Shown here: positions 49,868 to 49,976 of the stretch, one piece after another
Layout: every line of letters begins with the position of its first letter
Numbering within the stretch: position 1 is the stretch's first letter
The notes under the pieces: model-generated
The model's input: the letters and a program-made list of their open reading frames with translations, nothing else
Database searches by the model: none
What the model was told of the DNA's origin: nothing
NCBI RefSeq assembly: GCF_003334815.1
Contig: NZ_QOWO01000011.1
Strand: one strand, 5' to 3'
DNA: 64,000 nucleotides
DNA from: Escherichia coli
GTDB lineage: Bacteria; Pseudomonadota; Gammaproteobacteria; Enterobacterales; Enterobacteriaceae
Translations under genes and position numbers: made by a program

Positions 49868-49906
49868 TCCCCTCGCCCCTTTGGGGAGAGGGTTAGGGTG
49901 AGGGGA
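49868..49906. repeat. GC-rich intergenic repeat (boxC-like)
   Basis: ccctcgcccctttggggagagggttagggtgagggg, recalled as resembling the E. coli boxC intergenic repeat family. Confidence 0.5.
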
Positions 49907-49940
49907 ACGTACGGGATGTAAAATTCAACGCGCCAGCATC

Positions 49941-49976
49941 GCCGGATGCGATGCTGGCGCATCTTATCCGGCCTAC
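49941..49976. repeat. REP element abutting frlR stop
   Basis: gccggatgcgatgctggcgcatcttatccggcctac. Confidence 0.85.

Follow-up and report, generated by a model that had tools for sequence, protein, structure and literature searches.

REP sequences are substrates of the RAYT (TnpA-REP) transposase, and members of the family are bound by gyrase and Pol I. According to Liang et al. 2015 (as cited in PMC12306157), translation is down-regulated by REPs located less than 16 nt from a stop codon. BoxC repeats are the same elements as the PIT elements of Hoyne and Maher and the TMECO sequences of Holder et al. 2015 (PMC4666352), whose consensus CCCTCNCCC-N3-6-GGGNGAGGG-N3-GGGNGAGGG was used in this work. 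According to the supplement of that paper, there are about 28-29 TMECO copies in O104, O111, and O26, 23 in K-12, 10-11 in O157:H7, and one in E2348/69; the BoxC copy number differs strongly among lineages. Oligonucleotides of TMECO types A and B, with and without mismatch, folded in vitro into a stable intrastrand triplex, and the negative-control oligonucleotide of the same paper is the 36-mer of the locus described here with four G-to-C changes (PMC4666352). Kaplan et al. 2016 (PMC5100583) described a quadruplex-hairpin switch for motifs of the same class. In vivo footprinting revealed no triplex, and the duplex prevails when the complementary strand is present (PMC4666352). Neither promoter nor terminator activity was found in assays of PIT/BoxC, as far as the work of Hoyne and Maher is cited in PMC4666352. 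The experimental record on BoxC function is mostly negative. Holder et al. found TMECO loci to be more variable than control loci and raised the loss of gene clusters via BoxC/TMECO homology as a possibility, which was not documented (PMC4666352).

BoxC and REP in the yhfS–frlR spacer

The window, i.e., the whole stretch of 64,000 nt of Escherichia coli contig NZ_QOWO01000011.1 (GCF_003334815.1) that was analysed, is set apart from K-12 MG1655, over 20 kb, by 6 substitutions and by a duplication of 50 bp. Genes were named according to the ORF list and the MG1655 annotation. The convergent genes yhfS and frlR are separated by a spacer of 151 bp (49828-49978), which is 100% identical to positions 3504784-3504934 of MG1655. 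No repeat features are annotated for the yhfS–frlR region in the record NC_000913.3. The spacer harbours a BoxC core, CCCTCGCCCCTTTGGGGAGAGGGTTAGGGTGAGGGG (49870-49905), and a REP, GCCGGATGCGATGCTGGCGCATCTTATCCGGCCTAC (49941-49976), separated by 35 nt (49906-49940). The core starts 42 nt 3' of the yhfS stop codon, and a degenerate BoxC flank is recognizable from about 27 nt after the stop. Coordinates of all features are listed in Table 1.

Table 1. Repeats and gene ends at the two borders of the yhf cluster in the window
Feature	Position	Strand	Basis or remark
yhfS stop codon TAA	49825-49827	+	Left edge of 151-bp spacer; ORF list, MG1655 annotation
Extended BoxC unit, flanks ccgtactgaACGGTC ... 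GAACGTACGG	49855-49915 (edges approximate)	+	Alignment of 13 copies
BoxC/PIT/TMECO core, type 'A mm'	49870-49905	+	Consensus match; TMECO no. 15 / HPGQ 38
BoxC pyrimidine block	49869-49879	+	Core block
BoxC loop TTT	49880-49882	+	Core
BoxC purine block 1, GGGGAGAGGG	49883-49892	+	Core block
BoxC loop TTA	49893-49895	+	Core
BoxC purine block 2, GGGTGAGGGG	49896-49905	+	Core block
Perfect 13-bp inverted repeat, GCGCCAGCATCGC / GCGATGCTGGCGC, 5-nt loop	49930-49960		100% complementary
Single canonical REP, GTAGGCCGGATAAGATGCGCCAGCATCGCATCCGGC	49941-49976	-	GTAG head toward frlR, 2 nt after frlR stop
frlR stop codon TAA	49979-49981	-	Right edge of 151-bp spacer; ORF list, MG1655 annotation
BIME, two inverted REPs (42112-42145 and 42173-42201)	42112-42201		trpS–yhfZ spacer, REP pattern

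The published BoxC pattern has one exact match in the window (49870-49904) and none in 100 shuffles. The same 36-mer is listed in Table 1 of Holder et al. 2015 (PMC4666352) as TMECO no. 15, type 'A mm', at 3504892-3504857 in antisense orientation, and is placed 73 nt from frlR and 41 nt from yhfS in Supplementary Table S2 of that paper. In the list of putative G-quadruplex/hairpin switches of Kaplan et al. 2016 (PMC5100583), it is HPGQ 38, with the midpoint at 3504863 between frlR and yhfS. Its structure goes beyond an imperfect palindrome, as one pyrimidine-rich and two purine-rich blocks are accompanied by conserved flanks. Thirteen copies (the window copy, 11 others from K-12, and one from O103:H2) were aligned without gaps, and flanks of different copies differ by indels. 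The family consensus obtained in this way is GnGCnCGGACGGTC-core-GAACAGnCCGGCnC; the window core is equal to it and the window flanks match it partly. The flanks pair with each other, forming an outer inverted repeat of 26 nt (49853-49878 / 49896-49921) with 73% complementarity. The DNA fold predicted by ViennaRNA has -8.6 kcal/mol for the core and -16.8 kcal/mol (z -3.4) when the flanks are included, and as a single strand BoxC may fold into alternative hairpins. All 11 of the K-12 copies fetched are intergenic. Throughout a survey set of 5,426 complete E. coli genomes, the 76-bp BoxC region was found in a median of 17 places per genome (range 1-33), nearly all of them chromosomal. The window element belongs to the BoxC family by its core consensus, by identity with a copy already catalogued, and as a dispersed, multi-copy, intergenic repeat with family flanks.

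The REP pattern GTAGGCCKGATAAG-N6-24-CATCMGGC has five matches in the window, one of them at 49941-49976 on the - strand, and none in shuffles. This repeat has the GTAG head and GC-rich imperfect palindrome of the REP (PU) family and an extragenic position just 3' of a gene, 2 nt past the frlR stop codon. Neither a second full REP nor an IHF consensus with at most one mismatch was found within 49828-49978. The spacer therefore qualifies neither as a BIME nor as a RIB/RIP, and a reading of it as an IHF/RIB/BIME structure was rejected. When positions 49000-51000 were compared with Rfam at permissive thresholds, the best result was the REP-derived naRNA4, with 31.7 bits against a gathering threshold of 59.5, and BoxC was not covered. 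Such a sub-threshold score reflects general REP similarity only and not membership in the Rfam family.

The original prediction had placed a boxC-like element and a canonical REP at 49868-49976 and proposed alignment with repeat consensus sets as a check. Both consensus sequences were matched: the first element is a bona fide BoxC, the same as the catalogued K-12 copy, and the second is a GTAG-headed REP. The right end of the interval and the 35-nt gap were exact, but its start was set 2 nt too early, as the 36-mer begins at 49870. The REP does abut the frlR stop codon, with only 2 nt in between. BoxC is situated in the spacer 3' of yhfS, but a position "directly after the yhfS stop" is a loose description of a core 42 nt downstream. 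The term composite repeat is right in that two repeats lie side by side, but these are unrelated to each other and form no defined compound element.

It is very probable that the locus as a whole is explained by two unrelated, non-coding, and non-autonomous repeats brought next to each other by happenstance, with BoxC being mainly portable homology and with a duplication in yhfS unrelated to either of them. Both repeats belong to long-described families and the BoxC copy is present in two catalogues, so the finding as such is already known. For the window, these are two textbook E. coli intergenic repeats, with nothing pointing to an unusual function.

The disrupted gene next to BoxC is indeed yhfS. 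It carries a perfect 50-bp tandem duplication (48979-49084, 2.1 copies, 100% identical), which causes a frameshift and splits the gene into two ORFs of 129 and 251 aa. The duplication is absent among the top matches in the 5,426 genomes, all of which span 151 bp compared with 201 bp in the window. A link between the duplication and BoxC/REP was considered and rejected, given its distance of about 800 bp, its perfect tandem structure, and the absence of any sequence in common with either repeat; its earlier description as probably unrelated stands, since nothing ties it to the repeats. A separate tandem duplication of 44 bp was observed near the 3' end of yhfS in strain AST19 (L017, NZ_AP043612.1, ~350-420), where the gene is annotated as frameshifted. 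It corresponds to about 49749-49792 of the window, about 80 bp from BoxC, and the duplicated stretch overlaps a short inverted repeat of yhfS (reverse-strand HSP, 90% identity).

Predicted hairpins and the ends of the convergent transcripts

The left arm of the 13-bp inverted repeat (49930-49942) pairs perfectly with the interior of the REP (49948-49960). The resulting hairpin dominates the predicted folds of both strands, as DNA and as RNA, and reaches -21.6 kcal/mol as DNA versus -11.3 kcal/mol for the REP alone, for which the canonical hairpin is predicted (z about -4.5). On the - strand, which is the frlR sense strand, it is followed by GTTGAATTTTA. A complementary upstream arm is absent from the other window REPs examined (6739-6825 and 42112-42201). 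By inference, a second, inverted REP could have left the 13-nt arm behind as its remnant. Two hairpin substitutions were observed in O157:H7 and in isolate 23S01245-7 (L018), both of which give G·T pairs on the + strand, corresponding to C·A mismatches on the - strand.

From its position and predicted structure, two RNA roles are conceivable for the REP. Together with the extended hairpin, it would constitute a structured 3' end of the frl transcript and would shield the transcript from 3' exonucleases. It may also dampen translation of FrlR, which is proposed because the REP is 2 nt from the stop codon and the published rule applies to distances below 16 nt.

It is unlikely that BoxC and REP together are a selected bidirectional terminator/insulator that keeps the convergent yhf and frl transcripts apart. 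The spacer RNA folds far better than shuffled sequences (z -4.8 on the + strand and -6.7 on the - strand), and the terminator scan recognized one terminator-like site on the - strand, with the tail AATTTTACAT, and no canonical intrinsic terminator for yhfS or frlR elsewhere in the spacer. This site is weak, however, as the U-tract behind the REP-derived hairpin is AAUUUUA only. The same scan found no terminator at BoxC, whose hairpin lacks a proper U-tract on both strands alike, and the PIT/BoxC assays cited above, as far as reported there, agree with this. The identity of the spacer, 100% in many genomes, would fit a selected module, but it is no higher than that of the surroundings, where 6 substitutions occur in 20 kb in comparison with K-12. 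Moreover, BoxC repeats occur in every kind of intergenic context, and yhfS is kept without either element in 2,107 genomes. With one weak - strand site and none at BoxC, a bidirectional terminator was not taken as the main explanation.

Variation of the junction and loss of the yhf cluster in O157:H7

A comparison of the junction across strains, also proposed in the original prediction, was performed on the 5,426 genomes and revealed three architectures. In the first (T1), the order is trpS–yhf cluster–BoxC–REP–frl operon–yhfL, and the yhfS–BoxC–REP–frlR junction is present in 2,953 genomes. The second (T2) is trpS–BoxC–REP–frlR without the yhf cluster, with the full junction in 342 genomes; the four T2 rows sampled are 100% identical, three being labelled O157:H7 and one having no serotype label. 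In the third (T3; 2,107 genomes), yhfS is kept, and the frl operon, BoxC, and REP are all absent. Since BoxC and REP are absent together with frl, they travel with the frl operon and not with the yhf cluster. The T3 frl breakpoints (L003 and L004 vs. L001) show no evident repeats, so the frl indel arose in another way than the yhf deletion described below. The spacer is the seam at which the yhf cluster meets the frl operon, the two gene cassettes varying independently of each other. Among 56 strains, Holder et al. noted 'region missing' for the TMECO 15 locus in 28 (PMC4666352). At the T3 junction, about 30 nt of unrelated sequence were observed between the yhfS stop and the yhfL terminator (L003, L004 6329-6400 vs. 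L001 4617-4700). Both variable cassettes are decayed elsewhere: frlD is an annotated pseudogene with an internal stop in O157:H7 TX 376-2 (L002 6947-7732), and in isolate 23S01245-7 (L018 7953-9038), yhfS contains an internal stop.

Repeats are present at both ends of the yhf cluster, as had been claimed, with BoxC and REP at the frlR end and two inverted REPs at the trpS end, which make the trpS–yhfZ spacer of the window a BIME. This spacer is dimorphic (window 42079-42225 vs. L005 12037-12160), with the BIME in K-12 and the window and BoxC plus unrelated filler elsewhere, and the two alleles rejoin at a common intrinsic terminator, aaccggggaaacccggttttttt. The BoxC allele is present in about 1,524 genomes, for example at L005 12052-12095. 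In some genomes, PMV-1, F11, and JJ2434 among them, the match ends with the trpS stop, pointing to one or more additional alleles of the trpS spacer.

The yhf cluster lies between two direct copies of BoxC in O103:H2 12009, EC24, and isolate 23S01245-7 (L018) and, judging by the BoxC allele of the trpS spacer, in about 1,500 of the genomes surveyed. In O103:H2 12009 and EC24, the left copy is located 20 nt past the trpS stop, and the right one is the yhfS-side copy. To its left, the O157:H7 BoxC is flanked by a sequence identical to that on the left of the trpS-side copy, and to its right by one that matches the right side of the yhfS-side copy. The O157:H7 junction thus has the form of a left-copy flank, one BoxC, and a right-copy flank, as expected from BoxC×BoxC recombination. 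The counts are in agreement, as the trpS→BoxC junction occurs in 1,866 of the 5,426 genomes and the BoxC→yhfZ junction in 1,524, and the difference of 342 is equal to the independently counted T2 junctions. The yhf cluster (7.7 kb) was probably lost once in the O157:H7 lineage by recombination between two direct BoxC copies, and judging from the sequences the BoxC copy in O157:H7 looks like the scar of this deletion. Unequal or intramolecular recombination between the direct copies would delete the 7.7-kb cluster, and BoxC would act mainly as about 43 bp of portable homology. In the K-12-like strain of the window, this route is closed because the trpS-side partner is a BIME.

The position of the crossover can be narrowed with isolate 23S01245-7, an environmental, yhf-positive genome that carries the right-flank substitutions of O157:H7. 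Two positions in the 5' part of its right BoxC are not as in O157:H7, which together with the common right-flank substitutions narrows the crossover to approximately the 24 nt at the 3' end of BoxC. Among four loci compared, this isolate is nearest to O157:H7 in both flanks, yet still 1.3-1.7% diverged. A constructed parent, consisting of the yhfS-side left flank, BoxC, and the O157-type right flank, had no exact match in the search (best 98.6%), and no yhf-positive genome was found to combine the exact O157:H7 right-flank haplotype with a consensus right BoxC; the parent of the deletion is thus an inferred one that was not itself observed. As the deletion seems to be a single clonal event, it carries little information on the frequency of recombination between BoxC pairs.

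The BoxC×BoxC-type junction of O157:H7 bears out, at this very locus in other strains, the general statement that such elements promote local rearrangement. The literature searched for the yhf deletion in O157:H7 or for the yhfS–frlR spacer yielded only the catalogue papers, in which the event is undescribed, and the BoxC×BoxC explanation of the yhf absence is the only part of this analysis with some novelty.

A role of DNA structure in place of homology is improbable. According to this explanation, a BoxC triplex or G-quadruplex/hairpin switch stalls replication or transcription, and the stalling causes local instability. The triplex formed by TMECO type A and B oligonucleotides in vitro and the greater variability of TMECO loci than of control loci (PMC4666352), together with the switch reported for the motif class (PMC5100583), are in line with it, but in vivo footprinting detected no triplex and the duplex dominates in the presence of the complementary strand (PMC4666352). 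Two independent tandem duplications of yhfS in different strains, one of them about 80 bp from BoxC, could also be attributed to stalling; the 50-bp one, however, is about 800 bp from BoxC and has no sequence link to it. The O157:H7 junction itself is a clean repeat-to-repeat join, which homology alone explains.

Reversed polarity, with the O157:H7 arrangement trpS–BoxC–REP–frlR being ancestral and the yhf cluster inserted next to BoxC with duplication of the repeat, is highly improbable. Insertion and deletion are formally symmetric, as the arrangements differ exactly by the cluster and one BoxC copy, and the BIME at the trpS side in the K-12 lineage indicates that the spacer there was remodelled more than once. 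However, a yhfS fragment is present in 5,049 of the 5,426 genomes, including lineages only 90-95% identical, and one such genome examined (L004) has the complete yhf cluster. This argues for an old presence of the cluster in E. coli and favours its loss over its gain. The yhf-less junction is furthermore confined to the 342 genomes, with its four sampled rows identical and three of them labelled O157:H7, and the yhf-positive relative 23S01245-7 has the right-flank substitutions of O157:H7. We know of no insertion mechanism that gives a 43-bp target duplication equal to a pre-existing dispersed repeat, which also counts against insertion. Finally, it can be practically discounted that the two elements of the spacer are chance GC-rich palindromes outside any family, as the consensus sequences match, 0 of 100 shuffles do, the BoxC region occupies a median of 17 places per genome, and the copy is in two catalogues.

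Relation to known repeat systems

If the cluster was indeed deleted by BoxC×BoxC recombination, the O157:H7 junction would illustrate at base resolution the removal of a gene cluster by BoxC/TMECO through simple homology. It also provides a concrete, testable case for the long-standing, vague link between BoxC/TMECO and genomic instability. The absence of yhf from O157:H7 obtains a simple mechanism, and the junction suggests that homology rather than triplex formation is sufficient.

The window element shares with BoxC/PIT/TMECO repeats and HPG1-class HPGQ the three-block core, the intergenic site, and flanks as in other copies. Its core is without difference from the family, while its flanks are CCGTAC...GTACGG instead of the family GYGC...GCAC, yet still pair. 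The REP has the same head, imperfect palindrome, 3' extragenic site, and many copies as the GTAG-headed REP (PU) family, GCCGGATG...CTTATCCGGCCTAC. It differs from the other four REPs of the window in the internal stem GATGC/GCATC, and it is the only one of the window REPs examined with an upstream arm giving a stronger alternative hairpin. With BIME and RIB/RIP, the spacer shares a REP, but it lacks the REP cluster and the IHF site. As in REP- or IS-flanked deletions, O157:H7 keeps one repeat copy with the outer flanks, and the 7.7 kb between are gone; unlike in deletions between IS or long repeats, the substrate in O157:H7 is a BoxC of 43 bp.
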